DNA from: Candidatus Aenigmatarchaeota archaeon
GTDB lineage: Archaea > Aenigmatarchaeota > Aenigmatarchaeia > CG10238-14 > SpSt-28
Direction: 5' to 3'
DNA length: 64,000 nt
NCBI GenBank assembly: GCA_038742305.1
Contig: JAVYKI010000002.1
Span: 1,013-65,012, forward strand
Of this stretch, positions 1 to 43,003 are shown in pieces. Each line of letters opens with the position of its first letter. Position 1 is the stretch's first letter. Under the pieces are notes generated by a model, which was given only the letters and a program-made list of their open reading frames with translations, ran no database searches and was not told the DNA's origin. The position numbers and the translations under genes were made by a program.

Positions 1-3000
1 GCCTTTTCTATTAATTTTTCAATTTCTTCTTTAGATACTTCTTCAACATATTTTGGCATTTTAATTTTTCTTTTTTCAAATTCTTTTCTTATTCTTGGTT
101 CTATTCCTTCTAAATAAATATCTACTATATCAAAAGCACCTTGCATTAGTTTGCTTTCTGCAAGCTTAAGCTCTGTTTCTATATCAAACACATCAACTTC
201 ATGCTTTTTCAAAACTTCTAAGTAGAACTTTAATTCTTCAATTTTTCTATCTCTTTTATCATATTCTTCTAGTTCTTTATCACTTAACCTTGTTACTTGA
301 TGCAAAATTGGCCTAAAGCTTACAAAGTATGGCCTTCCTCTATTGTATTCTGCATTTACTATCATTCCAGTACCAACATTAGCTTTTACAATAGAACTTA
401 CAAATTCTTCCCCATACTTCATTTTTATTCTTTCCAAATCTCCTTCATACCTTGTTCTCATTTGAATTTCAGTACCAATATTTGCTCTAATTTCCCCAAC
501 AAAATCACTCAAAACTTGGCTAATCAATATTAAGCCAATTCCCCACTTTCTAAATTCTCTTACTCCTCTTTCTAAAGCAATAAATCCTTTACCGCTTCCT
601 CCAAATTTTGGCAATAATCTATGGACTTCATCATAAACTATTAAAGCTCTCAATTCTTTGCTTTCTTCTAGTTGGGAATTAAATATTTCTTGAATTGTAT
701 TTGCAACGAAAATGTCAATTTCTTCTGGTTTTAGTTTATTAATTACAAAAATATAAATATTGCCTTTTGGATTTTCAATTATTTCTTTTAAGTTTATTTT
801 TTGATAGGGGCTTCTTATTATTTTTATTTTGCCACTAAATCCTCTTGCTTGTTTTTTACTCATTCCAAACTTTGTATATTCTTTTAGCATATAATTTTCT
901 TTACACTTTCTTAAAAATCCAGTCCATTGAGCTGTTGGGTCAAAAACAATAACATTTTTGCCTTTTAATAGCGCTTCTTCTGCAATTACCATAGCAGCAA
1001 TAGTTTTTCCGCTTCCTGTAGCTCCAGCAATCATTGTATGCATTTTTAAATCATCTAAATAAATAAAAGCTCTTCTAGCAGTTTCTGCAATATTTCCAAT
1101 AAATGCTGAATTTTCAGTAGCTTGAGGCAAAGTTGAAAAATCTATTGGAGTAGCAAACCTTTTCTGTTTTTCTTTTATTTTCAAATATCTTCTATAAAAT
1201 ATTATTGAAATTGCAGAGCTAGAAGCTATTAATATTGCAAATAACAATAATGTTTTTAGCTCTACTCCTAAAACTTTTCTTTCTAATAGCGGAATTTCTA
1301 CTGTTACAAAAGCACTAGCTACAGCTTCTTGCTTAATGTCTTCAGTTAAATAAGTCGCTACTGCCTTTACTAAATATCTTTTTTCTGGAATGTTTTCTGG
1401 AACTTTTAGTGAAACAATTTTTGATAGAGAAGTTTCTACTGCTAAACTTTCTTCTACTTTGCTTATTTCTATCATCGCATCACTATCTATTAAAGCTACA
1501 GTTAAATTAACATCAACTCTTTTAGTTTTACCTAAATTGTAAAGTATTACTTCAGCTCTTAAATAATCTCCAGGCTTAACTTTATCTTGAAGCAAAGATA
1601 TTTTTAGATCTAAAAGCTTTAATTCGGAAGGTAAAACTTTTATAGTTATTGGAATGTTAAAGCTTTCGTTTTCTACTATTATTTTTGCATATCCTCTATA
1701 TGTTCTAACTTCTGCATCTTTTGGAATTTCTATGAAAAGTTCAAAATAGTTTGCAGATTTTTTATTTAGCAATATTCTTTTATTATAAACTTTTATAAAT
1801 TGAGAAGCTTCTCCATATAGCATTATTTCTGCATAAACATCTTTCTGCTTGTTGTTTGCAATATTTATTTTCTTAATATCTTTTTCTCCTTGCTTTAATT
1901 CAACATATATTTCTTCAGTTTTAATTTCAACTTTTTCTGTTAATTCTTTTAATGCTTCTTGTATTTTAGAATAATCTATGCTAGGTCTTTCATAATAACT
2001 TGGTGCTGGAGCTGGTGGAACAGAAGTTACTGGACAAGCACCACAATCAATAGAACAGCTTCTACAATCTTCATACAAACTATCACAAATATTATCTCCA
2101 CAAACTACTGCTTCAGCCAACAAAAATGCTGAAGAGGAATTTAATTCTATGTAAGCTTTACTTCTTATTAAATCTATTGTTGGAATTAATTCTATCCAAT
2201 TGCTTTCACAACTTCTATTTTCCAAATTCCAATTACTACACTTGTAAATTCTTAAATTACTAACTTTTATTATTGAGCTAGAATATTCTGAAATATCAAG
2301 TTCAAGCCTTAATTTATCGTAAGTAAAGTTTGGTTCTATTGCAAAAGCAAAAAACCTATTTCTTATATTTGAAACGTTTGGAATTAGAACGTTGAATACA
2401 TCTACTTTAACAAAATTAATAGTAGTAGAATTAATGCTAGCATTGTAATAAATAGCATCATGGTTTTCAATTTTTACTTTTACATCATATTTTCCTGCAA
2501 AAATAGAAGCATTAATTGTTGCGTTTTCATCAGGAACTAATAAATATTCTTTTTCTTTGCTTATTGGATTTAGTAATTCTAAGCTCAACTTTATTAATTT
2601 TTCATCTACAGTTTTTGAAAATGAAATAATACTAACTTTTTCTCCAGCTCTTAATAACTTTTCTTCTATTTTTGAATTGTTGCTCCTATCTCTTGCAAAA
2701 ACTTTTATTGTATAGTCTCCTTTTTCTTCTGGAAATATAATTGATTTGTAAACATTATTTTCTAAATAATAGTTTAGATTAGTTTCTGTTCCGTTTGGAT
2801 AAATTATAAATAGATAAACTTCTTGTATTTCATCATTATCTTCAACTAAAAACTCAACAGTATTATTTTTATTTATTTCTAGTTCTTTTGTTAAAATTGT
2901 TATGTTTGGGCTAATATTATCTATTACTTTTATAATTTGAGGAATTACTTGATAAGAAGTAAAGTTTAAGTAAGAAGCTTCTACAATTAAATCGTTGTAA

Positions 3001-6000
3001 AGCTTTGTAATAGGAACTAAGCAAGAAATGTTGAAAGAATTTGTAATGTTTGTTATTAAGCATTCTTTATTGCTCAACAAAACTCTAAAGCTTATGTTTT
3101 CAGTTATTTCATTATTTTCAAAATAAGCTTTTAAGCTAATGTTTAAAATTTGGTTTGGATAAACTTCTATTAAGTTTATTGGCTCTAAAACTATTAATGT
3201 AAAGTTAACTATAGTAATGTTGAAAATTATAGTTTTTGAAATGTTTAAAGTTTGATTAAATAAAGTAATGTTTTCTAAATAATTTCCTTCTTTAGTTAAA
3301 TTGTAATAAACTGGAATGCTTATTTCTTGAAGCTTTTGCAAAAATACTTCGTTTTCTACTTTTAAGTTTTCTGAAGAATTAATTTTTAATAGTAAATCGT
3401 TGTTTGCAATACTTTTAATAGTTAAATTAGTTAAAAATCCATAACCTTTACCTTTTTGCAATTCAAAATATTCATTTACTAAAAAGCTATAATTGTTTAA
3501 AACATTCACTCTTAAATAAACATACTTTTCAATTCCTTCTGAACTGCTTAACCTTAAAGTTCCCGCATAGCTGTTTGCACTATATCCAAAAGGTATTGTT
3601 ACATTTATTTCTATTTCCTTGCTTTCTCCAGGCATTAAAGTTCCTATAAACGGATTAAATTCTGGGTTAAATTCATAGCATATGGTTCCTAAAATGCATT
3701 CAGCTCTTATATTGCTTACTGGGTCTGTACCAGTAGATTCTATTAAGAATCTAATAGTATATTTTTGGCCGTGATGAGCATCTATCGGCAATGGGTCGTA
3801 TACTTCTAATCTTGCTTCTTTTTTAATTCCTTCAGCAATTACATATGCACCGCTTTGCAAAGTAGTATTTGCTTCTACAAACTTGTAAAGCTTGTTAACT
3901 TTGCTTGGCAACTGTATCCAGTTGTAACAAGTTTTTTCGTAAAAACTATAATCAGAACAATAAATTATTTTTAAATTATCTTCTATTGCACCAACTAATT
4001 GAGCTTCTTCTGGCTTATAATAAATTCTTATAGTTGAGTTAAAGCTTAATGGTAATAAGATTCCAAATCCTCCTAATGGCTTGTAAAGGTTAACTTCCGT
4101 AGAATAAATTTTATCGTATTTAATGAAATCGTTTGGTAAATCTAAAGTGCTTAAGTTATATATTTTTATTTTTGCTTTATCACTTTCTATTAATAAATCA
4201 TAAATTCTTTGATGCAGGCTTAAGTTTTTATATCCGTAAATATTTTCAAACTGCAAAATTTGATTAGTACCATTTCTGTAAAAAGTAAAGTTTAAGTTAA
4301 TTGGCTCATGTAATGCATTAGTAATGTTTACCCAAACATACTTCAAAATAAATACTTCAAAGTAATCTTCTAAAATTAGTGTGTTATTTGTTGTATCGTT
4401 TATGTAAAATATTAAATCGTAATCGTTTGGTTCTAAACTTGTTAACGTAATTTCCCAAGTTAAATTGTTTTCTGTTGTTAATTCAAAATATTGGTTTAAT
4501 TGCTTTACATGCATTAAAACTTTGTCTATTGCAACGTTATCTGTTAAATTAAGCTTTATTGCTACATTGCTTGGATATTCTACGCTTGGAATTTCTTTTG
4601 AAATTAAAGTTGGTTTAGTTACGTCTTTATAGTATAAAGCATTTATTTCTGTTTTTTGAACTGAAACATCATAAGCAATATAATAAGCTGTTAGCGTTAA
4701 GTTGTGCCATCTCCCATCTTCTAATTTTGGCAAGCTACAATTAATTAACCAATAAGCATTTTCTACTCTTAAATTGTTTATTTTGCATTCTTTATTATCT
4801 ACAAAAACTGAAAAGTTCAAATCTTGAGTTATGTATTCATCAACTAATTTAAAGCTAGCATTTATTTCTATGCTTTCGTTTTCCAAAACATTTAAGTATG
4901 GATTAATTTTATTAATTGTTAGCTCTGCAGGATAAACTTCAATTTTAATTGGCAATTTTCTAGTTCCTAAAATATTTTCATAAATAGTTAAGTTACCTTC
5001 GTAAAAGCTTAAATAATTTGGTGCAGTAATATTTGCAAAAACTTGGAATGTTTCTGCTGGATTTAGTTGTTTATAAGTTTCTGTTAAGCTTAATATATCT
5101 GTAACATTTCCTTCTAATGATAAACTACTAAATGTTAATATTTTATTTCCAACATTAGTAATGTTTAGAATGTTTTTAGTATAGTTTTTGCCTGCAATTA
5201 ATTTAATTGTAATGTTTTCTTTATCTGTAACATATCTATAATCTGCTGGAACTATAACTTGTAGTTCAAAGCTTGTTGAATTATCTATGCTTGTAATGTT
5301 TATTATTGGATAATAGTATCCATCTGAAAATCCTAGAGGCAAGCTAATAGTTAAAGTAATATTTCTAATTTCTCCTGCTGGAAAACTAGAAATAAAGCTC
5401 GGACTAAAGCTAACATATTGACATAACGTTGATTCTCTTATGCATTCAAAGCTTATGTTTCTTACTTCTGCATTTCCTTTTGAATAAATTGTAAAATTAA
5501 CTGAATAGCTTGAATTATGGCTTACTACAATGCTTGTTGGATAGTAAGTCAAGTTTATAATTCTTGTTGGCAAAACATTAACTTCTATTGTTGATGCTGA
5601 ATATGCTGTGCTTGAGCTTCCATCTGCATTATTCCAATTTACATATGGCCTAAACGAATATGTGTTTGGTAAAGTTTTTTCTGGAATTGTTACGTTTAAT
5701 AAACAGTAAACTGTTGTATTAGGATTAATAGAAGAAATGTTGCAAGATGTTATTATCCAGCTTGTTCCTCCTGGAGGTAAGGAAGTTAAAGAAACATTGT
5801 ATGCAGTAACAGTATCGTTTAAATTAGATATAGAAAAGTTTATTGAAATAGTTTTCGAATCTTCTTGAGTTATTCCGCTAACTTCGAAATAGTTATTAAT
5901 TGGAGATAAGCTCAATTGAGCTTTTGCAAAAGCTGTAAAATTAAAAGTTAAAGTTCTGCATTTATTACCAGTATCGCAAGCTGTTAAATTAGCTAAATAT

Positions 6001-9000
6001 AAACCTTCTATTGGAGGATAATAATTACAAGTTATTGTTCCATAGGTTAATGAATTTCCTTGAGCGCAAATTAAGGAATCTAAAGTTGAATTCGGTAAAG
6101 TAACGTTTAAATAAACTATTGCTAATTGATTTTGATCGTCATAGAAATAAGCACTAAATGCTTGCAACTTATTAATTTCAATTTTTTCGCTATATGCTAA
6201 ATTGTTGATATACGGAGCTACATCAACTATATGCCAATAAACTAAAGTATAGTTTAAAGTTGGATTTGCAGAATTGTTGCTAATAGTTATGTTTAAACCT
6301 AAATCTACTGAAACATAATAACCATTTTGCCAAAGCTTTATCTGATTGCTAGATTGCTTATCAACAAACAAATATGTTGGGTTATACAATTCACCATTTA
6401 CAACTTTATTTGTTTCAAAAATTCCATTTTCTATTGGATTAGTTGCTGATAATGAAGTATAACTTATGCTAAAGTTTAGAGGAACATTTCCAATGTTTTT
6501 AATAGTTATATTTCCAAGCAGTCCAGCTTCATTTAATCCATAAGTTTCTTCTATTCGGTCAACTTTTGTCCCATTCCTTGAAAAAACTTCCATTATCCAT
6601 CTTGAATCTATTGGAACAGTAACATTTATTTCTATTTCTTTTCTCCTTTCATCTGGATAACCTAAATTGCTAGTTACATTTATTATTCCTCTGTATAATC
6701 CAGGATCTTGGCCTAACGGAATGTTTATTGTTAAAGTAAAACTTTGATAACTTCCATCATCTATGCTTTGCCAATAGTTTGGACTAATTGTTATCCATTC
6801 TTTCGGCAAGTTAATTTCTGTATAATTAACCCAAACATCTTGTAAAGGAGCATTTCCAGTATTGTTTATTGTTATAATTATTGAAAAGCTTTGATTGTGC
6901 TGAATAGTTTGAGTAATGTTATACGTGCTTAGTTCTATTTGAGGATTGCCAACAACTGTAACATATTGTTTATTAGAAAAAATTATTGAAGATTTTTGCT
7001 GCTTGTTATTTATCCAGCTAGCATTGTAAACTTGAGTGTAAGTTCTTGGTTGAGTGCCTGCGGGAATTGTTATGTTGAAAGTTATATTTATTTCACTTTC
7101 TGGCAAAATTTCTGGAATCGGAGTTGCATTAATTATTGAAAATGGACCTGAATATTTAGTTATAGCTAAATTATGAATTGTTCCTTTTCCAGTATTTTTA
7201 ACTGTTATGTTGAATTGCTCAATTTTATCTTCTGTTAAGCTAACATTAAAAACTGTTAAATTGTAAGCAATTATTTGAGCTGAAGTTCTTAAATCTTCTA
7301 AATAATAATTAAAGCTAAAGTTTGCTAATTCGTAAAATGCACTAGAATTAAATGCCGAAACATAAATTGTTTTATTTCCAGCTAATAATTCGCAATTAGT
7401 TCCTATTGTAAAGTTTTGCTCGCAATTATAGCCATAACAAGTTTTTGTAAGACCATCTATTGTAATATTTATTTGGCCTATAATTAATTCATTAGTATCT
7501 ATTCTAGTATAATTACCAACTTTTATAGTTGTAATAGCGCAGCTTGGATTGCTTACAAAATCTTGAATAACTTTATATTCTTTTGTTAAATTAGTTGGTG
7601 CCCAAATTTTTATGTTGCTTGAATTTTCTCCATAAATTCCTTGATAATTTGTTATATTAACTTTTACGTAATGAATTCCTAAGGATGGAGAATTAAACTT
7701 AATTAAATAATTTCCCTGTTCATCTGTATTATTTGAAATTAAAAGGTTATTATCGAAATAAAGCTCTGTTAAGTTATTTATTAAGGGTAAATTATCTGGC
7801 AATAAAATTGCTTTTCCATAGAAAGAAGTTGAATTGTAGATTTTGTTGGAAGGATTTAATTCTATAAATATTTTCTTAACTTCAAAATAATAACTTAAGT
7901 TAATATTATTAGCAATTATTCCATTATTTGAAATTCCGCTAATGCTTACATTTAAATTATGGCTTCCCAAGTTTAAAGGAGCATTAAAAGTTTCTGAAGT
8001 TCTCCATTTGTTTAAAGTAGAATCAAAAACTAATGTGTAATTATTTCCATTTATAGTTAAATTGAAATTTCCTTGATTAACATCAAAATAGCTTGAACCA
8101 TTAAATTCCCTTATTCTTAAAGTTAAATAATAAGTTTCATTTGGATTAAGAATGTTATCTTGTTGATTATGAGAATCTAATAAAGTTAATTGGTCAAAGG
8201 TTAAATTTCTTACTTCTATTAAAATTGAATTTTCTCCATAAATTCCTTGATAATTTGTTATGTTAACTTTTATTTTATGAATTCCTAAAATACTGGATGC
8301 ATTTATTTGGCAAGAATATTCTCCATAATTATTTGTTGCACAACTTCCATTAAACACATTATCTTGATAAACAGAAACATTTTCATTACTAACATTTAAA
8401 TTATCTGGCAATAAAATTGCTTTTCCATAAACATTTATTGCATCGTTTGGATTAGCAATTGTAGAATTTAAATTTATTGTTATATTAATGGATTTAACAA
8501 AAAATGTTATATTTTTTTCTAGCGATTCGTTAGAAACAGAATAGATTATAACTGTAAAGTTATATTCACCAATAGAAGGCACAGAAGTATTGAAGTAAAA
8601 ATATTCTCTTTTGTCTATAGAAACCAAAGGAGTTAAACTAGAGTTTTCCCAAGTTAAAGCATTACCGTTAACTCTGAAAGTTGCGTTTGCTGTTGTTTTA
8701 TTACTTCCTGAAATAAAATTAAAATCACTTGGCAAAATTATATCAAATCTCAAAATATTTTCTAAAATTGATTGTACTGAAAATGTGAAAAGTTGATTTT
8801 CCTTGTTTGCTTGAAGAATTTTAACTTGTGTTGGGGGATTAGATTCTACACTAACAACTCCTATATAAGCTTTTAAAGGTAAGTAATCAGTATTATTGCT
8901 ACAGCTTGTACAACTACTTTTACTAATTAAATCATATGGGATATCACAAATTCCATTATTGTCATTATCTTGACATGTTTTAGAATAATTCTCAAAAGTT

Positions 9001-11072
9001 CCTAAATAAACATTACCGCCAATATAATTACCTTTAATAATATTTTCTGTTTGAGTTAAAGTAGTATTCCAAAAGTTTTGATAAATTGGAGGAATAAAGT
9101 TAGCTATATATTTCGTTTTAAAGAAATTATTGTAAATTAAATTATTTGAAGATGAAGATAAACTAATTGAAAAGCTCATAAGCTTAAAGATATTTGAAAA
9201 AATGTTTGTTGAATTAGATGATATCAAATATATTCCAGTAGAAATTCCTCCTGAACCTCCCGAACCTAAAAAACCACCACTTCCTCCAGCTCCACCAGTT
9301 AAATTACTTATTGTATTCGAATAAATTGTGTTATTTTGAGAATTTTGAAGGTATATTCCAGCAGAAATTCCTCCTGAACCTCCAGAACCTTGATAACCAC
9401 CAGTTCCTCCACTCATTCCTTTAAGTCCGGAAATTGTTAAATTATAAATTATTGAATTAGTAACATTTATTAAAGCTATTCCAGCAGAAATTCCTCCTGA
9501 ACCTCCTGAACCTTGATAACCACCGATTTGAATACTTCCTCCAATTAATATTGGAGGATTAGTTGAATTTATAGTAAAGTTAGCTATTATTATATTAGAT
9601 TTATTGAAAAAGTATAAAATTGGATTATTATCAAAATAGTTTAATTTTGAAGTATCTACAATGTTGTTGTTTAATAAGGTTATTTCATTATTGTAAGAAT
9701 TGGAATCTGAAATCTATATTCCAGCAGAAATTCCTCCTGAACCTCCCGAACCAAAATCACCACCACTTCCTCCAGCTCCACCAGTTAAATTACTTATTGT
9801 ATTCGAATAAATTGTGTTATTTTGAGAATTTTGAAGGTATATTCCAGCAGAAATTCCTCCTGAACCTCCAGAACCTTGATAACCACCACTTCCTCCAGCT
9901 CCACCAGTTAAATTACTTATTGTATTATTTCTTAACAAGTTATAACTACTTTTTACAAGAATTCCAATAGCATTACCTCCATTAAAAGATCCAAAAATAT
10001 AATTTATAATGTTGTTTTCTATAATTGAAAAATTAGCTTGAGAATCTAAAAAAATACCAGTTTGCCATTTTCTAATTATACAATTTTTAATAGTAACATT
10101 TTCAGAATTAACATATATTCCATACAAATTTTTTGAAGAGATATCATTAAGAGCAAAATTACCTTCTATTATTTTTCCATTACAATCCAAAGTTACATTT
10201 TCAGAAGTTATATTAATTCCTGTAGTTAAATTCAAATTTAAAATATCTTTGCTTAAAGTGTAATAACCGGGTTTATTTATTAATAAAACATAAATTAAGC
10301 TTGAGTTCAATCCACTTATTCCATTAGAATCTGTTGTATTAATTGTTATATTATAAATTCCTAAATCTGAAGGAACAGAAAAAGTATAACTATAATTTCC
10401 ATTAGAATCAGTAGTTACATTACTTAAAAAGTTATCATCTAAGTAAATGCTTATATTTATGTTTGGAACTGTTAAATTATCTGGCAATAAAATTGCTTTT
10501 CCGTAAACATTTATTGCATCTCCTGGATTAACAATTGTAGAATTTAAATTAATTGTTACAAAAATTTTTCGAACAATAACAGTAACATTTAATTCTTCAA
10601 TGCTTCCATTTTCATACAAAGCTTTTAAAGTAAAGTTATAATATCCAACATCTGGAACAGAAGAATTAAACCAAAAATTTTTTGTTTCATTAGCTAAAAT
10701 TAGCCCAGAAAAATTTTGCCAAACTAAAGTATTTCCATAAACAAAAAAATCAGAAAAAGCATTTGTTCCGTTGCTATTAGAAATAAAACTAAAGCCTGAA
10801 GGTAAAGTAATATTAAGCTGAGTAATATTTAAAGAAAGAGTATTGTTAACAGTAAAGTTAAAAAGCTGATTAGGTAAATTTGCTTGAACTGCTTGAGGAT
10901 ATGTAATAGAAAAAGGAGGGGTATGAACTTTAACTTCTAAGCTGAAAACGTTTATAAAAAAAGCTAAAGTTAATATTAATGTAAACCATAATTTTTTACT
11001 ATTCATATCTTTCATTAATGTTTCGAAGAATAAAAGCAAAGCTTTTAAATAAGCAAAAAATTTAAAAAGCAA
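1..11072 (-). CDS. Giant secreted/surface protein, partial (runs off the left edge). It has an N-terminal signal peptide, a beta-helix region with Gly-rich GGAGGSGG..GSGGSGGISAGI repeats, many Asn/Thr-rich Ig-like modules, a TM helix and a C-terminal cytoplasmic HerA/FtsK-like P-loop ATPase domain. An in-frame TAG sits at 9714-9716.
   Basis: The ORF track gives 9714..11072 (452 aa, MLFKFF...LILTLAFFINVFS signal peptide). I translated the minus strand by hand below the TAG and it continues in the same frame (codon starts at positions congruent to 2 mod 3), with the same Gly-rich repeat motifs. No other M-initiated ORF is listed anywhere in 534..8610 on either strand, consistent with a single open frame to position 1. 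Near the 3' end: the hydrophobic segment LLLFAILIASSSAISIIF, then Walker A HTMIAGATGSGKT (~1000-1040), Walker B LIVYDEVHRL, and a tail ...EKRKIKMPKYVEEVSKEEIEKLIEKA leaving the window. NxT/S sequons are abundant. Confidence 0.6.
7560..7700 (-). repeat. A ~70-140 bp intragenic duplicate of 8190..8290 (ttttctccataaattccttgataatttgttat(a/g)ttaactttta...atgaattcctaa).
   Basis: By-eye alignment; both copies lie in the giant ORF frame. Confidence 0.5.
8395..8480 (-). repeat. Ig-like module repeat (YGKAILLPDN...). It is ~90% identical to 10472..10557, and a partial copy lies at ~7797-7830.
   Basis: Shared string ttatctggcaataaaattgcttttcc(a/g)taaacatttattgcatc...ttgtagaatttaaatt. Confidence 0.6.
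9229..9402 (-). repeat. Intragenic repeat copy 1 (~175 bp). It is near-identical to 9714..9887 and encodes Gly-rich beta-helix turns (GGAGGSGG..GSGGSGGISAGIY).
   Basis: I aligned the two copies by eye at an offset of 485 bp and found only a handful of mismatches. The 26-nt core ccagcagaaattcctcctgaacctcc recurs at ~9231, 9361, 9481, 9721 and 9841, a period of about 120-130 bp. Confidence 0.7.
9714..9887 (-). repeat. Intragenic repeat copy 2. Its first codon is the in-frame TAG, where copy 1 has TAT (Tyr).
   Basis: Direct comparison of 9229-9240 (aatatattccag) with 9711-9723 (atctatattccag). Confidence 0.7.
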
Positions 11073-11172
11073 AGAAAAAGTTGAGAAAAAAGGTTAAAAA
11101 ATCAAAAAATAAAAAAGATAAAAGAAAAAATTTCGAAAAAGTTGAAACTTCGAAAATCGAAATAAATAAATA
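11073..11172. promoter_or_regulatory. Divergent intergenic/promoter region between the giant gene and the wHTH-MinD pair. It is poly-A rich and carries a repeated ttcgaaaa / ttcgaaaatcgaaa motif.
   Basis: Sequence ...tttcgaaaaagttgaaacttcgaaaatcgaaataaataaatattgataatt... lies immediately upstream of both divergent starts. Confidence 0.4.
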
Positions 11173-11469
11173 TTGATAATTATTATTATGGATAACAGAG
11201 AAATATTAAAAGAAAGAATTAAATTTGTTCTCGATTTATTAAAAGAAGAAAGAAAAGAGCAAAAAATTATCGGTAGAAAAGAAAAGAACAAAGAAAAAAT
11301 TTTGGAGTTTTTGAAGCAAAATAAATTTGCTACTTTAGAAGATATTGCAAAACTTTTAAACATTTCAATTAATAGAGCTTCAGAATATTTGAACGAATTA
11401 TTCAAAGAGCAAAAAGTTACTTACATAAGAAAAAACAAGAAAAAATACTTTAAGTTGTTAAATGGTTAG
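11173..11469 (+). CDS. Small K/E-rich winged-helix (HTH) DNA-binding protein. The true start may be the MDNREIL at ~11188.
   Basis: The C-terminal ...FATLEDIAKLLNISINRASEYLNELFKEQKVTYIRKNKKKYFKLL looks like a wHTH. It overlaps the downstream ATPase gene by 8 nt. Confidence 0.5.
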   Translation: MIIIIMDNREILKERIKFVLDLLKEERKEQKIIGRKEKNKEKILEFLKQNKFATLEDIAKLLNISINRASEYLNELFKEQKVTYIRKNKKKYFKLLNG

Positions 11470-12205
11470 AATAATAGGAATAGTAAGCGGAAAAGGAGGA
11501 ACAGGAAAAACTTTAATAGCAACCAACCTTTCTTATGCAATTTCTAATTTAGGCTTTAAAACTTTATTAATAGATTTTAACTTTACAACTCCCCACATTC
11601 CAATAATTTTAAATTCGAAGCCATCTTTTACTCTTAACGATTTTTTAGAAGAAAGGGCAGATTTTTACGAAATTTTAAATCCGCACTTAAACTTTTTCTT
11701 TGTTTCCCCTTCAACTAGCCTGCAGGATTTAAAAAATTTTAAAATAGAAAATATTGAAAAGCTTAAAGAAAAGCTAAGCTATTTTGATTATGTAATAATA
11801 GATTCTGCTCCAGGTTTTGGAAGAGAAGCAACTTATTCTTTTCTTTTTTCAGATGAAATATTAATAATTGCAAATCCAAATTTATCTTCTTTGTTCGATT
11901 CTTTAAAGTGCTATGAATTAGCCAAAAGATTAGATAAAAAAGTTTTAGGAATTTTAATAAATAGATATACTAAAGATTCAGCCCTAACAATTCAAGATTT
12001 TAAAAATGTTTTCGAAATACCAATACTAGGAATAATTGAAGAAAGTAAAATTGCAAAGCAGTTAGATTTAAAGAGGAAAATGCTTTACGATTTAGATAAA
12101 AACTTTCAAAATCAAATTCTTGAAGTTGCTTATAAAATTTGTAATCTCGAAATTAAAAAAGAAAGCTTTTTGGAAAAAATAAGAAGGTTTTTCAAAATTA
12201 TCTAG
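11462..12205 (+). CDS. MinD/ParA-family (deviant Walker A) ATPase.
   Basis: GIVSGKGGTGKTLIATNLS near the N-terminus and DYVIIDSAPG later. The gene ends with a TAG stop at 12203-12205. Confidence 0.8.
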   Translation: MVRIIGIVSGKGGTGKTLIATNLSYAISNLGFKTLLIDFNFTTPHIPIILNSKPSFTLNDFLEERADFYEILNPHLNFFFVSPSTSLQDLKNFKIENIEKLKEKLSYFDYVIIDSAPGFGREATYSFLFSDEILIIANPNLSSLFDSLKCYELAKRLDKKVLGILINRYTKDSALTIQDFKNVFEIPILGIIEESKIAKQLDLKRKMLYDLDKNFQNQILEVAYKICNLEIKKESFLEKIRRFFKII

Positions 12206-13631: not shown

Positions 13632-13887
13632 TTTTTATTACTATTACGCTTATAGGAAAAGGTTTTCCGCATAGTATTCCTAGCTCTATGCTTGTTCCAT
13701 TAAACTCTTTTATAAGATTTTTATTTCTTACAGCACTTATTATATCATTTTTCAAATCTTCTCTCATATTTTTTGCTATTATTACAAGCTTTGGTTCATA
13801 GTTTTTTAAATACTTGTAAGCTTTTCTGTATCCATATATTGCTTTATTTTCTTTTATTGCTTCTTTAACTATCTTTTCTATTTCCAT
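13618..13887 (-). CDS. rpl30e: 50S ribosomal protein L30e.
   Basis: An ~89-aa protein in the conserved slot between rpoA'' and nusA, with an L30e-like core. Confidence 0.7.
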
Positions 13888-14965
13888 TTTCCCTTAATGT
13901 TATTTCTACTGCTCCAGTTCCTATTGGAACAACATTTCCAATCATTAAGTTTTCAAAGCTGCTTTTTAATTCATCTTTTGCTCTTCTAACAGAAGCATTA
14001 ACAATGTTTTTAACTGTTTCTTCAAAGCCAGCTCTTGCAAGAATAGAATATTTTCTTCCAGCAACTCCATACCTTCCAATTGGGCTTATTGTACCATTAA
14101 AAGTCATAGTATCTGCAATTATAAATAAAAATCTTAAATTGACATCTAAACCTTGCTGTTGCAAAACTTTCATTACTTCCATTAAAAGCAAATTTCTAGC
14201 AGCCTCTATTCCCAAGACTTCAGCAACTTCATGAGGATTATTAGAAATTGTTCTTGTTTCGTCAACTTCTTCTATTTGCAAAACTTCTTTTAAGTTTGAG
14301 CCAATAGTTTGAATTATCCAATCATCTTTTTCTTTATAAACTATAGCAGTTTCGATTCCTTTAATTCCTTTAAATACCATGCTTCCTATTCTATCTCTAA
14401 GCCTTCTCAACTCTTTTATGCTATATTCTTTTCTAGGAATTATTTCAATTCTTTTTCCTTTTTTCTTTACAGAACCAAGCTTTATTTTTTCTTTTAGGAA
14501 TTCATAAACTTCTTCAAAATACTGTTCTTCGGGCTCAATTTCTAAAGAAAGCTCTGTAAGGTTTAAATAAATTCTGCTAACTTCTCCAATCTTTTTTTGA
14601 ATTAAAGAGCTTGCAACTCTATAAGCATCTTTTTCATTATTGTATTCTTTTTTTAAGTAAATTGTCATGCTTGGAGTAGAAATATCTTTTCTTGCATCAA
14701 AAAGCTCAATTAATCTTGGCAAACCTAAAGTAATTTTTATTCCTACAGCACCAGCAACATGGTATACTCTCATAGTTGCTTGAGTAGCAGGCTCGCTGAT
14801 GCTTTGAGCTGTTAAAATTCCAATAGCTTCTTGTGGCTCAAAAATAACTTTTTCATAAGCTTTTCTTACAGCTTCTTCTAATTTTTTCTTTTGCTCTTCG
14901 CTAAAATTATACTTTTTGCTAACTTTTTCTATTAACTCTTTTATTCTTATTGGTAGCTCAATCAT
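13865..14965 (-). CDS. rpoA2: DNA-directed RNA polymerase subunit A'' (C-terminal third of Rpb1).
   Basis: ...[26 protein letters not shown]... matches the trigger-loop region. The start overlaps the upstream rpo ORF by 4 nt. Confidence 0.85.
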
Positions 14966-17900
14966 ATTTCTTTTGCAATTTCTTCTACATTAATATCTCC
15001 ACCTTCAACTTTATATGGATCAATTAAATCTTCTCCAGCAATAAATTGAATTATATTTCCACTAGAATCTCTTATTGTTCCGTCATATTCAATTTTCAAA
15101 TCTTGTAAAGCTCCAATAAACCTCCTTTCCAAATAACCGCTATGCCTAGTTTTAACACTTTTATCCATAAGAGATTCTCTAGAATTAATCATTTCAAAGT
15201 ATAATTCTATTGGCTTTAATCCTTCTTTAAATCCTCTTGGAACAAATCCTTTTGCTTCTAAACTAATATCATTCCTTTCAAAGTGTGGAAAGCTTCTTAA
15301 GTAATAACCAATTTCTATTCTTCCTCCCATAACTTTTTCTTGACCGATCATTCCGGAAATTTGTATTATATTTACTAAGCTACCCCTTGCTCCAGAAGCT
15401 GCCATAACAAAAACTTCACTCTCTCTTTTAATTTCTGGCAAAACTAACTTAGAAACTTCTGTTAAAACTTCATTAACTATTCCATTAATTAATTGCTCCA
15501 AAGTTTCTTTTTCAGTCCTTCCTATTAAAGCTTCCAATTTTCCTTCTCTAAACTTTTTAATTAATTCATTAACTTTATCATTTGCTTTTTTAACTAACTT
15601 TTCAATTTCACTTTTAACTTTTTGAGAAATTGAATAATCAGCAAAAGAAATGCTAAATCCATGATAAAGCAAAAAGTTCATTCCAAGTTTTGAAACATTT
15701 TCAATAAACCTTTTTGTATAGTGCTCTCCAAACAAAGTTAATATTCTGTTTAATAATTTTCCGTTTTCTCCAACAGCTTTTTTATCTATTGCTCCATTTA
15801 TTAACTTTCCATCTTTTATAACTACATAACCTTCTTTTTCATCAACAGAAGCTAATGAACCTTTGAATTCTAATGAAATTTTTGGTAAGAAGCAGCTAAA
15901 TATTTCTTTTCCAGTTAAGTATTCTTTTCTCGGAATTTCTACGTTTAAATCTATTTCTCTTATAAGCTGTACAGCATCTTCATACTTTATTTTTCTTTCT
16001 CCATAAGTTAGCAAGAATAATCCAGAAATTTGATCGTGCAATAAAGCAATTATTGGACCTCCATACCTCGGGCTTCTAATATGCTTTATTACACTCATTA
16101 ATATTTCTGCTTCAGTCATAGCTTCTATTGATTGAGGAACGTGCAAATTCATTTCATCCCCATCAAAATCTGCATTGTATGGAATAGTTGTGCACAAGTT
16201 AATTCTAAAAGTTTTTCCGCTAGTAACTCTAACTCTATGAGCCATCATGCTCATTCTATGCAAGCTTGGCTGCCTATTAAACAAAACTATATCTCCATTA
16301 AGCAAGTGCCTTTCAACAATCCAGCCAGGGGCAATTCTTTTAGCAATTTCTTCTTTATTTTTATCCATTATTTTTATTCTTGTTCCATCTGGAGCAATTA
16401 CATAATTTGCTCCAGGCCATTTTTCTCCATTCAAAATAAGCTTTCTAATTTCTTCAATATTTTCTTCATTAACTACTACTGGCACAGTTAATTCTATAGC
16501 TAAAATTTCTGGAACTCCAACTTCATCTATATCTAAATATGGATCTGGACTAATTACGCTTCTAGCAGAAAAGTTTGTTCTTTTTCCTAGCAAGTTATAT
16601 CTAAACCTTCCTTCTTTTGTTTCTAATCTTTGAGAAAGAGTTCTTAAAACTCTTCCACTTCTATGCCTAGCAGGAGGAATTCCGCTTAACTCATTATCGT
16701 AAAACGTTGCAACATGATATTGTAATAATTCCCACAAATCTTTAATAATAAATTCTGGAGCACCAACTTCTAAAGTTTCTTTAAACCTTTCGTTTATTCT
16801 AACAATATCAACTAATTTATGAGTTAAATCGTCTTCACTTCTTTCTCCAGTTTCCAAAACTATAGAAGGCCTAACTGTAACTGGAGGAATTAGCATTACG
16901 CTTAATATAAACCATTCAGGCCTTACTCTTATACCAATTTTTTTCAGCTCTTCATCTTCGATAGAAGCTAAAAATTCTCTTAGCCATTCTCTATCAACTT
17001 CTTTATCATCAATTTTAAAAGTATAAGGCCTTATAAATTCAATTTTTGGCTGTTTTGCTTTGCAATGAGGACAAGTGGAAGGTAAAGATTTTAAGAATTC
17101 TTTAACTTTTGGCTTTTCTTCTTTTGTTAAAACTTTTTTACAGTTTTTGCAAACAGCTCTTAAAATAGTGTAAATATGCCTAACAAACAAAGGATGTATA
17201 ACCGGCTTAGCTAATTCTATATGTCCAAAGTGCCCAGGACAAGTTGCATATGTTCCAGCGCAAGTTCTACATCTTATTCCAGGGTCAACAGTTCCTAATC
17301 TTGGGTCCATTATTCCGCCTTCAACAGGATAACCTTCTTCATCATAAACATCAATTTTATTAATTTTTGCAACAGACATTTTCTTAATCATTTCAGGACT
17401 TAAAACGCTAAATTCAATGCTTATAACTCTTCCTAAGTTTTTATCTACAATTAATTTTGGATAAATGTGCATTGAAATAAGCTCTTGCAATAATAATTTA
17501 AATCCATAGCTCATTTCAACTAATACTACTTCACTACTATCATCACAAACATTACACCATAGTCTATTTCTTATTCTATCTTCATAAGCAATTAATCCGC
17601 ATCTCGCACAAACTGGAATTAATGTTTTATCGGAATCAAATCTTTCCTTTAAAGTAATTGCAGCACCATGAGCAATTAGTACATCCTTTTCCATTTCTCC
17701 TAATCTTAATCCACCTTCTTTTATTCTTCCTTCTGTTGGCTGCCTTGTTAATAATGTTACAGGCCCTCTAGTTCTTGCGTGTATTTTGTTAGAAACTAAA
17801 TGGTCTAATTTCATGTAAAATCCGCTTCCAATTAATATTCTAGCTTCATATTTTTTACCTGTTCTTGGGTCGTACATTACTTCTCTTCCATCTTCGCTAA

Positions 17901-19236
17901 ACCCAAGCTCTTTTAACATTTTAACTAATTCTTCTTCACTCATTCCTTCAAAAGCAGTGGCATCTATAAATTCTCCCTTTATTGCAGCAATTTTTCCAGC
18001 AACTATTTCTAATAATTGACCAACAGTCATTCTAGATGGAATGCTGTGGGGATTAAAAATTATATCTGGAACAATTCCGCTTTCTGTAAATGGCATATCT
18101 TCTTGTTTAACTAATAAACCAACGACTCCTTTTTGGCCATGCCTAGTTGCAAACTTATCTCCAATTTCCGGAACTTTTAAATCTCTTACAACAACCTTAA
18201 CCAATTTATTACCATCTAAAGTTGTAGTAATATAAACTCTATCTACAATACCTTTATCTCTATGCCTTAATTCTATCGAAGTTTCTCTTAAGTTTTCTGG
18301 AGAAATTATGAATTGAGTTGTTGTTCCAAGAAATCTTAACGGCGAAGTTCTGCCGATTAAAACTTGTCCTCCCTCTACTCTTGTTTCTGGAGGAACTATT
18401 CCATCAACATCTAAATGCTTATATGCATCTTCCCCTCTATATCCTTTAATTCCTGGCATTGGAATTCCTATTACATCTTCTTGTCCAGAAGGATATTTCT
18501 TTTCTTCAGCTTCATAAGTTCTAAACATGTAGCTCCAGAACAATCCTCTTTCTACGCTAGATTTATTTAATACAATAGCATCTTGCATTGCATAAGGATG
18601 AGAAATTATTGCAATTACAACATTATTACCTATAGGATGAGTATCAAAAGGAAAAGTTTCGTATGCAACAGTTCTAACTAATGGTATTTGAGTATATAAG
18701 CCAATGTTTGCCTTAGAATCTGCTCTAGTTTTATAAGCTAAATTATAAATTCCAATAGCTTGTCCACTCATTTTTGCACCATAGTTTATTCTATCCCCTC
18801 TATTATGTTCTACAAAAGGAATTAGAGAAGCATGCAACCCTAAAGTTATTGCTGGATGAATTTCTATATGAGTATGTTTTTCAGTTGCGTCTGGATATAA
18901 AGAAATATAAGCATTTTCTTCTTCTTCTGCATCCAAAAATTCTATTATTCCTTCTTTAACTAAATCGCTAAACTTTATTTTTCCATTTTTCAATTCTTCA
19001 ATCTTTTTAATTAAATCTTTATATCTTTCTCTTACAATTGCAGGCCTTCTAATTCTTCCAGAGCCAGTATTTATTCTAACTTCATTCTTAAATTCTAAAA
19101 CAGCAACATTTACTTGATATGATATTTTTCCACTTCTCCTTAATTCTCTTATTTTTTCAAATATCTTTTCTGGGCTAGAAGTGTATCCTAAAAATTCTCC
19201 ATCCAAATAAACTTTATATTTAGCCTTCATTTTCAA
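14962..19236 (-). CDS. rpoB1-rpoA1: Fused RNA polymerase subunit B' (RpoB C-terminal part) and subunit A' (Rpb1 N-terminal part), a single 1424-aa ORF.
   Basis: N-terminal half: ...[44 protein letters not shown]...[21 protein letters not shown] (RpoB C-terminus). It is followed without a stop by [51 protein letters not shown]...[29 protein letters not shown] (RpoA' zinc site). I checked the junction DNA at ~17400-17520 and found no stop. Confidence 0.75.
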
Positions 19237-20734
19237 TATATTTTATTATTTCTTCTTTTATTTTATCTCTTTCTTCATCCGGAATTCCAAAGGTAACTTC
19301 GCTAAATATGGCTAAATGCTTTCTTAGCCCAATAGTTGGACCTTCTGGAGTTTCTGCAATACAAAGCTTTCCATAATGAGTTGGATGCAATTCTCTAGCT
19401 TCAAAATGCTCTTGAGTAGTTTTTAATGGCGAACTAACAACTCTCATATGAGTAACGCTTTTATTTAAATTAGCCCTTTCTAATCTTTGACATGTTCCAG
19501 TTCTATTTCCAATCCATGTTCCAACAGCCATTGCGGATTGTATCATATTAGTTACATAATTTGATTCAATAACAGCATGTAATGGAGGCAACTTTTTTCT
19601 TCTAGCAAGCTTTTGGAAATTAAAAAGCATTCTATTAATTACTCCTTGCTTGCCCATTAAAATTGTTCTAAAAAGTATTTCGAAAAGTTCTCCAGCTAAT
19701 CTTACTCTTTTGTTTGCATAATGGTCAATATCATCTTGCTCTTCTTTTCCTATCGCAACTTTTATCATTCTTTCAACAATTTTGGCTAAAAATATTGCTT
19801 TATTTATTCTGTCTTTTTTAGTTTGTCCAACATGCAATAAAAAGTACTTATCTAGTAAAGTTTCAGCCCTTTCAATTCTTAGTTTTTTCTGAGGAATTTT
19901 CAAATATTTACCTATTTCGTCTAGTGCTTCTTCTTGAGTTAAAACAGGATATTCGTAAAGGTTAATTAAAAATTCTTCTTGAACTTCTTTATCTTGACTT
20001 ATAGTATTTAATAAAACTTCATCATTTTCCAACCCAAGAGCTTTAAGCAAAATAACAACTGGAAAATCATGTAAAGCGGAAAAAGTTGTTAAAACAATTC
20101 CATCCTTTTTTAATTCAAACAAATGCTTAACTATGTAACCTTCTTTTTCAGAATTTATTCTGCAATTAACAACTACATTATTTGTATTAACTTTTCTTAT
20201 TATTGGCTTGTTTGGAGCCAGTTCTTCAATTAAAATTAAATTTCTTTCAGTTCCGTTAATTATAAAATATCCTCCAGGATCATCTGGATCTTCTCTTGCT
20301 TTTATTAATTCTTCTCTGCTCATTCTTGATAAAGGACAAATTTTAGATTTTACCATAACTGGCAAATCACCAAAATAAACTTCTATAGGATCGCTTTTTA
20401 CTCCACCAACTTCAGTAACAACTTTTAAAAACATTGGAGTAGAATAAGTTAAATTTCTAATTCTGCATTCGTAAGGCAATAATGGATTTGAAGGTGTTCT
20501 TTGAGAGCCATCTGCTTCAATTAAAGTCGGATAATCATTAACTCTTCCATCTATAAAGTGAATTTTTACATTTCCAAGTTCAGGAATTTCTGGCTTAACT
20601 GTTCCAATGCTTTTAACAAGTTTAGGAAACTTTCTTTCAACAAAATCATTATAAGAATCTATTTGATATCTAACCCATCCTTTTTCAGCTATGTAAGCTT
20701 TCAATAAATCTGCAAATATTAAATTTAGGTTCAT
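19220..20734 (-). CDS. rpoB2: DNA-directed RNA polymerase subunit B'' (RpoB N-terminal part).
   Basis: [33 protein letters not shown]..., 504 aa, typical archaeal split rpoB. Confidence 0.85.
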
Positions 20735-42271: not shown

Positions 42272-43003
42272 TTATATAAACTTATTTAAATTCTTTTTTA
42301 TTTGATTAATTACTTTCTTTTCACTAACTTTATAAAAATTTGCAATTTCTTTAACAACTTCTATTACATCTTTGCTATTCATTTTTACATTTTTATATTC
42401 ATATGGACCATCGCTTTCAGTTAAAATATTTTTTAAATCTAAAATTTCTAAAGCTTTTCTATGATTTTCTTTAAATTTTAAAGTAATGTTGAAAGAGCAA
42501 AAGTATCCAACATTTTTAATTTCTTCTAAATAAGAAGAATATTGTACCCAATGAAAATTTGCTTTCTTTATATCAAATTTAAAAACTATATCTAAAACTT
42601 CTTTTATAGAATTTGCAGAGTGTAAATTTACAGGCAAATCATATTCTTTTGCAACTTTAATTTGCTCTACAAAAATTTCTTTTTGTTTTTCAATAGTTTT
42701 TGAAAAGAAAATTTTATCTAATCCGATTTCTCCAATTCCTATAGCATATTCAACTAATTTTTCAATTTCTTTTAAATCTTCTTTTTTTGCTAAATGAGCA
42801 TTCCAAGGATGAATTCCAACAAAAATTGGTAAATTAAATTTTTTATAAATTTCAATATTTTTTAAAGAAGTTTCCAAATTTTCGCTTACAGAAAAAATTA
42901 AAATTTTTTGATTTAAAAAATTTTCAATTTCTTTTTCAGAATATTCATAAGCATGACAATGAATATCGAAATATTTAAATAACTTGAGCTGTTCCTCCAG
43001 CAT
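42272..43003 (-). CDS. tatD: TatD-family metal-dependent hydrolase/DNase.
   Basis: FDIHCH...GIHPW...IGEIGLD...LHS...ESDGPY TatD motif series. Confidence 0.7.
   Translation of the reverse strand: MLEEQLKLFKYFDIHCHAYEYSEKEIENFLNQKILIFSVSENLETSLKNIEIYKKFNLPIFVGIHPWNAHLAKKEDLKEIEKLVEYAIGIGEIGLDKIFFSKTIEKQKEIFVEQIKVAKEYDLPVNLHSANSIKEVLDIVFKFDIKKANFHWVQYSSYLEEIKNVGYFCSFNITLKFKENHRKALEILDLKNILTESDGPYEYKNVKMNSKDVIEVVKEIANFYKVSEKKVINQIKKNLNKFI

Follow-up and report, generated by a model that had tools for sequence, protein, structure and literature searches.

Background

A 2019 study described SPEARE proteins in Nanohaloarchaeota (PMC6642349), and their re-annotation in 2023 gave a giant ectodomain followed by a transmembrane (TM) helix, a VirB4/TraG-like ATPase and a coiled coil, the latter being described at the tip (PMC10266531). 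NAR1_1133 of Ca. Nanohaloarchaeum antarcticus has 5,998 aa, the proteins of Ca. Nanopetramus SG9 reach 8,553 aa and SVXNc_0300 of Ca. Nanohalococcus occultus has 9,409 aa. Laminin-G, protease and toxin domains have been reported for nanohaloarchaeal ectodomains, and the members from this group are stated to have one or more laminin-G domains (PMC6642349, PMC10266531). Homologues are known from Aenigmarchaeota, Woesearchaeota, Micrarchaeota and Altiarchaeales (PMC6642349, PMC10266531), those of Aenigmarchaeota having been counted by the intracellular region only (PMC6642349). Host attachment and the transfer of DNA or protein have already been hypothesised as roles of SPEARE proteins (PMC6642349, PMC10266531). 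Among archaeal ATPases, CedD consists of a TM segment, an N-terminal domain and an ATPase domain (PMC11868833).

We studied a locus in a 64,000-nt stretch of DNA (the window) which very probably codes for a giant surface protein of the SPEARE family; the DPANN archaeon that it comes from most likely belongs to the Aenigmatarchaeota. The initial annotation regarded the joining of ectodomain, TM helix and ATPase as a non-standard architecture. This view has to be given up: it is the defining SPEARE layout (PMC6642349, PMC10266531) and is very common in DPANN. Judged by its sequence, the protein is a new member of the SPEARE giant host-interaction proteins, and its architecture is not new. With its nanohaloarchaeal counterparts it shares a signal peptide, a giant adhesin-like exterior, one near-C-terminal TM helix, a P-loop ATPase and a terminal coiled coil, as well as Pfam signals for NPCBM_assoc, ResIII and DUF87, and short versions of ~650-720 aa are present in both lineages. 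However, it is Aenigmatarchaeota-like, with 27% GC and a non-halophile composition, it is smaller, its ectodomain is built from a beta-helix and CARDB/NEW3 modules, and this copy carries an in-frame TAG.

The gene and its extent

A minus-strand frame that runs from position 11072 to base 1 and off the window contains one stop, compared with 213-467 stops in the other five frames, and the probability of its stopless run of 3,237 codons arising by chance, calculated from the base composition of the region (27% GC), is ~1e-134, indicating that the frame is a genuine giant coding region. It had been described as a single open frame; the run to base 1 and beyond stands, but the frame is interrupted once, by the TAG at 9714-9716. 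Judging from the sequence, the ATG at 11015, which opens MKDMNSKK and then a hydrophobic stretch, is likely to be the true start rather than the TTG at 11072. Since 291-292 residues follow DEVHR in three close relatives and 210 do so in the window, ~82 codons lie past the left edge, and we estimate a protein of ~3,750 residues with this tail included. The proposal that the host is a small-genome archaeon agrees with the archaeal RNAP/L30e/NusA/S12/S7 cluster in the window, the low GC content and top matches in Aenigmatarchaeota. The features of the gene are listed in Table 1.

Table 1. Features of the giant gene, in window positions
Feature	Position	Strand	Remarks
Whole gene within the window	1..11015	-	3,671 codons from the ATG to the edge, one in-frame TAG included
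Predicted Sec-type signal peptide, MKDMNSKKLWFTLILTLAFFINVFS	10941..11015	-	basic n-region, then 16-residue hydrophobic stretch
Right-handed beta-helix (NosD/pectate-lyase-like) domain	9006..10208	-	GGxGGSGG...GGISxGIY repeats; spans the TAG
In-frame TAG	9714..9716	-	codon 453 of the frame; within beta-helix GGSGG repeat
Variable sequon-rich ectodomain, CARDB / NPCBM_assoc (NEW3)-type Ig-like modules	2109..9005	-	mostly without Pfam match
Cys-rich knot (VVCGDNICDSLYEDCRSCSIDCGAC) and Pro/Ala linker	1998..2108	-	junction of variable ectodomain and conserved SPEARE core
Pair of conserved Ig-like (PapD/MSP/ASH-like) beta-sandwich domains	1299..1931	-	membrane-proximal; few sequons; K/E-rich
Single TM helix LLLFAILIASSSAISIIF, then basic stretch YRRYLKIKEKQKRF	1197..1250	-	codons 3275-3292; hydrophobic segment 3267-3292
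HerA-clade (FtsK-HerA superfamily) P-loop ATPase core	291..1109	-	cytoplasmic; Walker A/B, REFRKWG and SQ motifs
Walker A, GATGSGKT	1002-1025	-	
Walker B, LIVYDEVH (DEVH)	621-644	-	
C-terminal helical/coiled-coil tail, start only	1..281	-	cut by window edge; AF2 helices 589-658

Ectodomain, membrane-proximal core and tail

The ectodomain comprises ~3,000 residues overall. A single-sequence AF2 model of the N-terminus placed a helix at residues 4-24. In the beta-helix domain, which carries a family of 183-nt repeats, Pfam detected Beta_helix (5.3e-10) and NosD (7.3e-6) upstream of the TAG and NosD (1.4e-12) directly downstream of it. The variable ectodomain matched NPCBM_assoc (2.7e-15), and CARDB and further NPCBM_assoc matches were also found, so that the adhesion-type domains typical of SPEARE ectodomains are represented by Beta_helix/NosD, CARDB, NPCBM_assoc and the juxtamembrane Ig-like pair, which was modelled at a pLDDT >90. 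In an ectodomain of which Pfam leaves about two thirds unassigned, Laminin_G gave no match at E<=0.1, no protease or toxin domain was detected by Pfam and no WD40/PQQ propeller was detected, in contrast to nanohaloarchaeal SPEARE proteins. At the junction with the conserved core, the Cys motif has similar counterparts ~270-330 aa ahead of the TM helix in many giant relatives, and related Cys motifs followed by poly-Gly linkers were identified in the SPEARE protein of Nha. antarcticus and in one of the related loci (L003).

The protein has the SPEARE topology, with most of its length outside the cytoplasm, one TM helix near the C-terminus and an end that lies in the cytoplasm, as reflected by hydropathy, AF2 modelling, sequon placement and the signal-like N-terminus. 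The TM segment is the only 19-residue window with a Kyte-Doolittle hydropathy >1.9 in the whole protein, and AF2 predicted one long helix at model residues 263-294 that matches it. There are 158 N-x-S/T sequons, compared with 61.9 +/- 7.0 in shuffled sequences, and all 158 lie before the TM helix and none after it. A C-terminal coiled coil, another SPEARE trait, was recognised from the AF2 helices at the end of the window and from the tails of the relatives, which continue for ~82 further K/E-rich residues.

Relatives of the protein

[quoted passage not shown] S18, PMC6642349) and contains small errors. The intracellular P-loop region is thus homologous to that of the founding SPEARE member. 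A search at E<1e-3 yielded 1,516 cluster representatives. In 145 analysed proteins from the top 150 matches, 69 had at least 2,000 aa and 28 at least 4,000 aa, and a single TM helix just upstream of Walker A was present in 104. In relatives, the one TM helix lies ~80 aa ahead of Walker A. The sequon density of relatives was typically 2-7 per 100 aa outside, compared with ~0.3 inside. The core module was found in at least 511 loci of GTDB species representatives from seven DPANN lineages, most of them in ORFs >1,400 aa, and it is common to short forms of ~700 aa and to giant forms of up to 7,665 aa across DPANN.

The closest comparison is an orthologue in an Aenigmatarchaeota MAG (P0269, locus L006), which is collinear with the window protein at 65% identity over 3,154 aa and has the same divergent wHTH and ParA-like neighbours. 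The ATPase is 80-90% identical between the two, whereas the ectodomain is 47-74% identical, with the lowest values near the N-terminal end of the stretch that the orthologue covers.

These relatives also bear on whether a chimeric assembly or a lost stop fused an ordinary giant adhesin gene with a separate ATPase gene of ~700 aa. Short forms of this size with their own signal peptide do exist, and the contigs of close relatives often break just upstream of the module. However, the independent orthologous genome keeps the same continuous arrangement, dozens of complete giant proteins have Met and a signal-like segment at the start and the module at the end, and stop-bounded ORFs of 2,567-3,954 aa occur at 10 or more loci of species-representative genomes. 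Moreover, the junction of Cys knot and linker is a recurring one, with a constant spacing to the TM helix. A fusion artefact is thereby effectively refuted.

The in-frame TAG

Five other ORFs in the window that reach 150 aa or more, among them the ParA-like gene at 11462-12205, end in TAG, indicating that the genetic code is standard and that this codon normally acts as a stop in the genome; no tRNAs were found within the 64,000-nt window. If the TAG is real, the 3,237 in-window codons that follow it (~3,300 residues once the missing tail is counted) would be cut off from the signal peptide. The gene may then be a recent pseudogene with a fixed TAG, in which only a secreted beta-helix fragment of 433 aa is made and the remaining residues are unexported or untranslated. 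The normal use of TAG as a stop fits this reading, as does the position of the next in-frame start, 100 codons past the TAG inside the beta-helix, where there is no signal peptide or hydrophobic N-terminus. On the other hand, all codons after the TAG are intact at 27% GC, which would hardly occur by chance (P ~1e-134), so that any inactivation must be very recent.

The TAG is also one base from the codons found at the same position elsewhere. It sits in a 183-nt repeat whose paralogous copy, 97% identical, has TAT (Tyr), and the Aenigmatarchaeota orthologue has TGG (Trp), reading GIWIGDS compared with GI*ISDS in the window gene. In the assembly of the orthologue, this same repeat contains a scaffold gap of 100 N, and such repeats are places where consensus errors or minority variants become fixed in assemblies. 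Inactivation of the gene is therefore rather unlikely in our view, although it is the most serious of the alternatives. Given the TAT and TGG codons, the continuation of the NosD/beta-helix match on both sides and the lack of a signal peptide at the next start, the TAG is, on sequence evidence, a single-base nonsense change or a sequencing or assembly error inside one ancestral gene. It represents a very recent inactivation or, alternatively, an error or variant in a repeat that is hard to assemble.

The ATPase domain and its class

The cytoplasmic domain is built on an ASCE P-loop core, in which Walker A and Walker B (DE) are accompanied by the R/K and Q sensor motifs, and it matches the central domain of HerA; the Walker A/B, REFRK and SQ motifs were invariant across 80 homologues. 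Pfam DUF87 scored 38.2 bits (cutoff 23.2), in line with the HerA/FtsK class, and HerA gave the best sequence and structure matches. The proposed architecture, in which a giant adhesin-like exterior is exported, one C-terminal TM helix follows and an ASCE P-loop ATPase of the FtsK/HerA/VirB4 class lies in the cytoplasm, was thus borne out: the TM and P-loop motifs quoted for it are all present, and no stop was found between ectodomain and ATPase. In a model with a pLDDT of 92, the TM helix is separated from the P-loop strand by no more than a beta-hairpin (residues 313-329) and a HAS-barrel is absent, so the ATPase is HerA-like in its core but not a canonical HerA. Unlike HerA (Sulfolobus solfataricus 4D2I; HerA-NurA, HerA-Sir2, HerA-DUF4297), which has the N-terminal HAS-barrel, it is anchored in the membrane and joined to an ectodomain, its P-loop core is preceded by the TM helix and the short hairpin, neither NurA nor Sir2 nor another nuclease is encoded next to it in the orthologous locus, and it scores far under the cutoffs of the HerA equivalog models.

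Like CedB and CedD of the Sulfolobales Ced system, which acts in cell-to-cell DNA transfer, the protein is a membrane-anchored archaeal HerA-clade ATPase. CedD (NF053655) was its best NCBIfam match (3.8e-13), but 49 bits is under the equivalog cutoff of 600 and an identity with CedD was rejected. The Ced ATPases have no ectodomain, carry a VirB4-like cytoplasmic N-terminal domain and are partnered by CedA/CedA1/CedA2, and no partners of this type were seen in the related loci. Pfam FtsK_SpoIIIE, TrwB_AAD_bind and AAA_10 were all under their cutoffs. Compared with VirB4, VirD4 (TrwB) and FtsK-SpoIIIE, the protein lacks the VirB4 N-terminal domain, an FtsK-type multi-TM anchor and the gamma domain. 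FtsK/SpoIIIE identity was rejected on the score of its model and the lack of a multi-pass N-terminal anchor.

A T4SS-like 'straw' has been proposed (Reva et al. 2023), in which a VirB4/TraG-type secretion ATPase injects effectors into the host, through or along the giant protein, and acts alongside a second VirB4 ATPase. Against this, the best matches were to HerA, there was no match to PF03135 (CagE_TrbE_VirB), and TIGR00929 (VirB4) scored 14.5 bits against a cutoff of 643, so that a VirB4-type T4SS ATPase was rejected. An association with T4SS genes was likewise rejected for the related loci: within 6 kb, 79 related loci have no conserved polytopic membrane protein (VirB6/CedA-like) or second P-loop ATPase, no VirB4 gene was seen downstream in the orthologous locus, and a soluble coiled-coil protein is the sole neighbour that is conserved. 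We therefore regard the 'straw' as improbable. The original SPEARE annotation (Hamm et al. 2019) read the cytoplasmic domain as a nuclease/helicase resembling type III restriction enzymes and acting in the degradation of imported DNA, and it was a ResIII-type signal that led to it (PMC6642349). This signal recurs here, with Pfam ResIII at 37.6 bits (cutoff 22.5) and DEAD at 22.9 bits on the same stretch; we consider such an activity very improbable.

Proposed function

Adhesion to the host coupled to an ATP-driven hexameric motor is the likeliest function. The ectodomain is likely to be exported by Sec, glycosylated and directed towards the host cell as a long variable adhesin. By analogy with HerA, VirB4 and FtsK, the ATPase would, with somewhat less confidence, form a hexameric ring under the membrane that bundles six stalks and six TM helices. 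A translocation channel formed by one TM helix per protomer alone is unlikely. ATP hydrolysis may move a polymer at the cell-cell contact; DNA is its likeliest substrate, since all membrane-anchored members of the superfamily that have been characterised (FtsK/SpoIIIE, TrwB, CedB/CedD) offer this analogy, although the assignment to DNA is tentative. Alternatively, the motor could do mechanical work on the stalk. It is also possible, if less than even, that the coiled-coil tail docks the coiled-coil protein encoded directly downstream in most related loci. This neighbour is conserved in 59 of 80 loci, on the same strand and immediately downstream in 57 of the 80, and most of the downstream coiled-coil genes lie within ~130 nt or overlap.

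Reading frame of the giant gene and its in-frame TAG

Translation of the minus-strand frame from position 11072 gave 3,690 codons with a single stop, whereas the other five frames over the same stretch contain 213-467 stops. Together with a probability of ~1e-134 for 3,237 consecutive sense codons, calculated from base composition, this indicates that the stretch is genuine coding sequence. The stop, a TAG at codon 453 (window 9714-9716), contradicts the initial annotation, which had described the frame as uninterrupted. We rejected recoding of TAG, since other well-supported window genes terminate with this codon: it ends 5 of the 45 window ORFs of at least 150 aa, the Pfam-supported ParA-like gene among them.

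The TAG is located at the edge of a 183-nt repeat, and a 97%-identical paralogue carries TAT (Tyr) at the homologous codon. The orthologue in an Aenigmatarchaeota MAG (P0269, at locus L006) has TGG (Trp) at this site and its frame continues, reading 'GIWIGDS' where the window reads 'GI*ISDS'. Moreover, a NosD/beta-helix match flanks the TAG (5.3e-10 and 7.3e-6 upstream, 1.4e-12 downstream), and the nearest in-frame start after it lies 100 codons on and has no signal peptide. Taken together, these observations place the TAG inside one ancestral gene. The orthologous assembly contains a 100-N scaffold gap within the same repeat, showing that this region is difficult to assemble. Based on these sequence comparisons, we conclude that the giant gene is one ancestral gene with a one-base nonsense change. 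Either this change is an error or a variant, or the gene was inactivated very recently.

Domain architecture and topology of the giant protein

The anatomy of the giant protein is listed in the table, and the signal-like segment, ectodomain modules, TM helix and P-loop ATPase described in the initial annotation were all correct. Three close relatives have 291-292 residues after the DEVHR motif and the window has 210, indicating that ~82 codons are missing and that the full protein has ~3,750 aa. The length was estimated from these relatives because no contig in genome_contigs or metagenome_contigs matched window bases 1-60 exactly.

Features of the giant protein in the window, and examples of the coiled-coil partner gene at related loci
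Feature	Position	Strand	Remarks
Start	ATG 11015	-	Probable; followed by signal-peptide-like segment MKDMNSKK + LWFTLILTLAFFINVF
Right-handed beta-helix	~10208-9006	-	GGSGG repeats
Variable ectodomain	~2,300 residues	-	CARDB and NPCBM_assoc/NEW3 Ig-like modules, long stretches without Pfam match
Junction	2108-1998	-	Cys-rich knot and Pro/Ala linker
Ig-like pair	1931-1299	-	Two beta-sandwich domains
TM helix	1250-1197	-	Sole strong hydrophobic segment
P-loop ATPase	1109-291	-	Walker A 1025-1002, Walker B 644-621
Helical tail	Runs past window edge	-	
Coiled-coil partner	L014:12159-13313		
Coiled-coil partner	L079:6975-8000		
Coiled-coil partner	L064:12770-14269		
Coiled-coil partner	L007:13923-14969	-	

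N-x-S/T sequons were counted along the protein. Codons 45-3008 carry 158 of them, compared with 61.9 +/- 7.0 in composition-preserving shuffles, while the membrane-proximal Ig-like pair carries 2 (expected 1.1) and the ATPase part none. This asymmetry supports the outside/inside topology. It is shared by the giant relatives, which typically have 2-7 sequons per 100 aa outside and ~0.3 inside. The Ig-like pair is predicted to be extracellular, yet its composition is K/E-rich and cytoplasm-like, and with 2 sequons in 258 aa it contrasts with the remainder of the ectodomain; it may be a buried oligomerisation collar.

The N-terminal 433 aa, modelled with single-sequence AF2, reached a mean pLDDT of 50.5 (~55-88 for the beta-helix part alone) and were excluded from the fold search. 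This exact 433-aa product had no entry in the contig collection. Ectodomain codons 2425-3041 gave no match at E<=1e-3 in a word-indexed homologue search, despite the existence of a 65%-identical orthologue. This empty result was disregarded, since the list of candidates was probably swamped by N-rich composition.

The giant protein belongs to the SPEARE family

Giant nanohaloarchaeal proteins were named 'SPEARE' by Hamm et al. 2019 (PMC6642349). In their description the bulk of the protein is extracytoplasmic, the TM helix is C-terminal, and an intracellular 'type III restriction enzyme' region is conserved. They showed expression by proteomics, and reported homologues in Woese-, Aenigm- and Micrarchaeota and Altiarchaeales as well as short versions of 655 and 717 aa; size fractionation in the same study suggested cleavage of the protein. 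In a re-annotation, Reva et al. 2023 (PMC10266531) assigned the intracellular part to a VirB4/TraG-like ATPase with a coiled coil after it, and proposed a secretion 'straw'. The core module of the window protein matched the SPEARE sequence in the 2019 supplement (PMC6642349) with 42% identity over 624 aa (E 1e-157). The fusion of ectodomain and ATPase, which the initial annotation had presented as non-standard, is thus already described in these two papers, and the claim of novelty was not upheld. The giant gene is real and conserved, with one premature stop in this sequence, and is a new Aenigmatarchaeota-type member of the SPEARE family. Work on archaeal 'dark matter' secretory systems and on the Thermococcales Ig-domain module does not describe the family.

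We found that the C-terminal 435 aa matched hundreds of DPANN 'DUF87' proteins of ~550-760 aa, and these short forms consist of a signal peptide, Ig pair, TM helix, ATPase and coiled coil. With the last 1,000 residues as query, exhaustive HMMER searching gave 1,516 cluster representatives, and 145 sequences from the best 150 of these matches were analysed. Among the 145, 69 have at least 2,000 aa and 28 at least 4,000 aa, with a maximum of 7,665 aa; a single TM helix just before Walker A was present in 104, and a Met with an N-terminal signal-like segment in 70. The module is C-terminal in the giant proteins examined, and the same core of ~650 aa is found under ectodomains of ~300 to more than 7,000 residues. 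The nearest cluster is from Aenigmatarchaeota and includes P0269, a protein collinear with that of the window (65% identity over 3,154 aa). Conservation follows a gradient, from 47-64% identity in the distal ectodomain to 80-90% in the ATPase.

Scanning one genome per species identified at least 511 module loci in seven DPANN lineages (Aenigmat-, Woese-, Pace-, Nano-, Micr-, Alti- and Nanohalo-archaeota). At the best 80 of these loci, most ORFs are longer than 1,400 aa, and many of them extend beyond the 10-kb flank. This wide recurrence indicates that the ectodomain-ATPase fusion is ancient and common, and no artefact. For genome annotation, it matters that SPEARE-type genes are often broken by assembly gaps or errors in repeats and mislabelled 'DUF87/DUF853, partial'. 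In the 54%-identical relative at L003, a Cys-rich motif and a poly-Gly linker are encoded in frame ahead of the called start (L003:1-141). A TGA at bases 10-12, four codons from the contig end, lies near a place where the motif might have a Cys; this TGA may be a contig-end error.

The ATPase is closest to HerA

The ATPase of the giant protein matched Pfam DUF87 (HerA central domain) at 38.2 bits, above the cutoff of 23.2; FtsK_SpoIIIE, TrwB_AAD_bind and AAA_10 stayed under their Pfam cutoffs, and the VirB4 N-terminal domain was not found by Pfam search of the giant protein. The top NCBIfam match was CedD, which at 49 fell far short of its cutoff of 600. HerA proteins came first when PDB sequences were searched with phmmer. 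The last 681 residues, modelled by AlphaFold2 with 80 homologues, had a mean pLDDT of 92.1, and Foldseek ranked Sulfolobus HerA at the top. These profile, phmmer and Foldseek results place the ATPase in the FtsK-HerA superfamily, on its HerA/VirB4 side and closest to HerA. However, the HAS-barrel of HerA is absent here, and a TM helix and beta-hairpin precede the core instead.

A Pfam ResIII match was also reproduced in the giant protein (37.6 bits), confined to the stretch from Walker A to Walker B, and this match is what misled the first SPEARE annotation. The motor is nearest HerA, and is neither a restriction enzyme nor a canonical VirB4. All 80 homologues carry Walker A, DExH-R, REFRKWG and SQ unchanged, and from this motif conservation we consider the ATPase probably catalytically active. 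An anti-phage defence function, raised by PADLOC matches to HerA/mad8, was rejected, as these matches reflect the shared ATPase core only and no defence partner genes are adjacent.

A coiled-coil protein is the only conserved neighbour

Of the 80 related loci, 59 encode a soluble coiled-coil protein rich in K/E (245-1,166 aa, median 404), and its gene is the only conserved neighbour of the SPEARE module. The gene lies downstream on the same strand in 57 of the 80, where most copies overlap the SPEARE stop or lie within ~130 nt of it; the two closest genomes have it in convergent orientation, 1.6-1.8 kb off. Profile searches with the partner gave generic coiled-coil matches only (MCP, SMC/Rad50 coils, GCN4), and the SPEARE descriptions in PMC6642349 and PMC10266531 make no mention of it.

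Divergent from the giant gene, the window encodes a small winged-helix protein (11173-11469, +) and a ParA/MinD-like ATPase (11462-12205, +), a pair that recurs at this position in the orthologous locus (L006:7184-8223). A 103-aa ORF on the minus strand (11094-11405) is probably spurious. The window also has an AAA_14/DUF4143 ATPase gene (35010-36263, +), and the related MAG has three tandem copies of this family, a few kb upstream of its SPEARE locus (L006:3134-7179).

Proposed mechanism

DPANN archaea rely on physical contact with host cells, and SPEARE-type proteins stand out most among the candidate molecules for mediating this contact and the transfer of material. We propose that the ectodomain would act as a glycosylated adhesin and that the ATPase would form a hexamer beneath the membrane, where ATP hydrolysis may move a polymer at the host contact site or work mechanically on the stalk. 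By analogy with FtsK, TrwB and CedB/D, DNA would be the likeliest polymer, and the coiled-coil tail may engage the downstream coiled-coil partner. Part of a type IV secretion system (T4SS) is another possible reading of the gene, but no conserved polytopic membrane protein or second ATPase was found beside it in 79 related loci. It is doubtful that a channel could be built from the SPEARE protein alone, with one TM helix per protomer, and the transport step is the weakest part of every current model.

One tentative and rather improbable possibility is that the SPEARE core is an autonomous DPANN-specific trans-membrane motor, derived from neither T4SS nor Ced, which would be hexameric and either pull a polymer or actuate the stalk. 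Such a motor would comprise the Ig-like pair, the single TM helix, a HerA-clade ATPase lacking the HAS-barrel, the coiled-coil tail and a translationally coupled downstream partner. Six exchangeable adhesin stalks would be attached covalently to the hexameric ring, and at the contact site host DNA or another polymer would be pulled into the symbiont, or the stalks actuated mechanically. If true, this would constitute a distinct class of cell-to-cell transfer apparatus across the whole family, with the window locus as one example. The HerA-like motor, constant core, wide distribution and sole conserved partner narrow what merits testing, and do not settle the function.

Other genes in the window

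In a single 1,424-aa ORF at 14962-19236 (-), Rpb1 domains 1-5 come directly after Rpb2 domains 4-7, with neither a stop nor a Met at the junction. This ORF is an apparent in-frame fusion of RNA polymerase B' (the C-terminal half of subunit B) and A', located between a separate B'' upstream (19220-20734) and a separate A'' downstream (13865-14965).

The window also encodes a second, soluble DUF87/HerA-like ATPase of 422 aa (42975-44243, -; Pfam 1.3e-13), only distantly related to the SPEARE ATPase and directly followed by a TatD-family nuclease gene (42272-43003, -). These two may form a HerA-nuclease pair for repair or defence. Finally, a FlaI/T2SSE-type secretion ATPase of 733 aa (46228-48429, -), with a ~220-aa N-terminal extension before the FlaI-like region, may be part of a type IV pilus-like system relevant to host contact.
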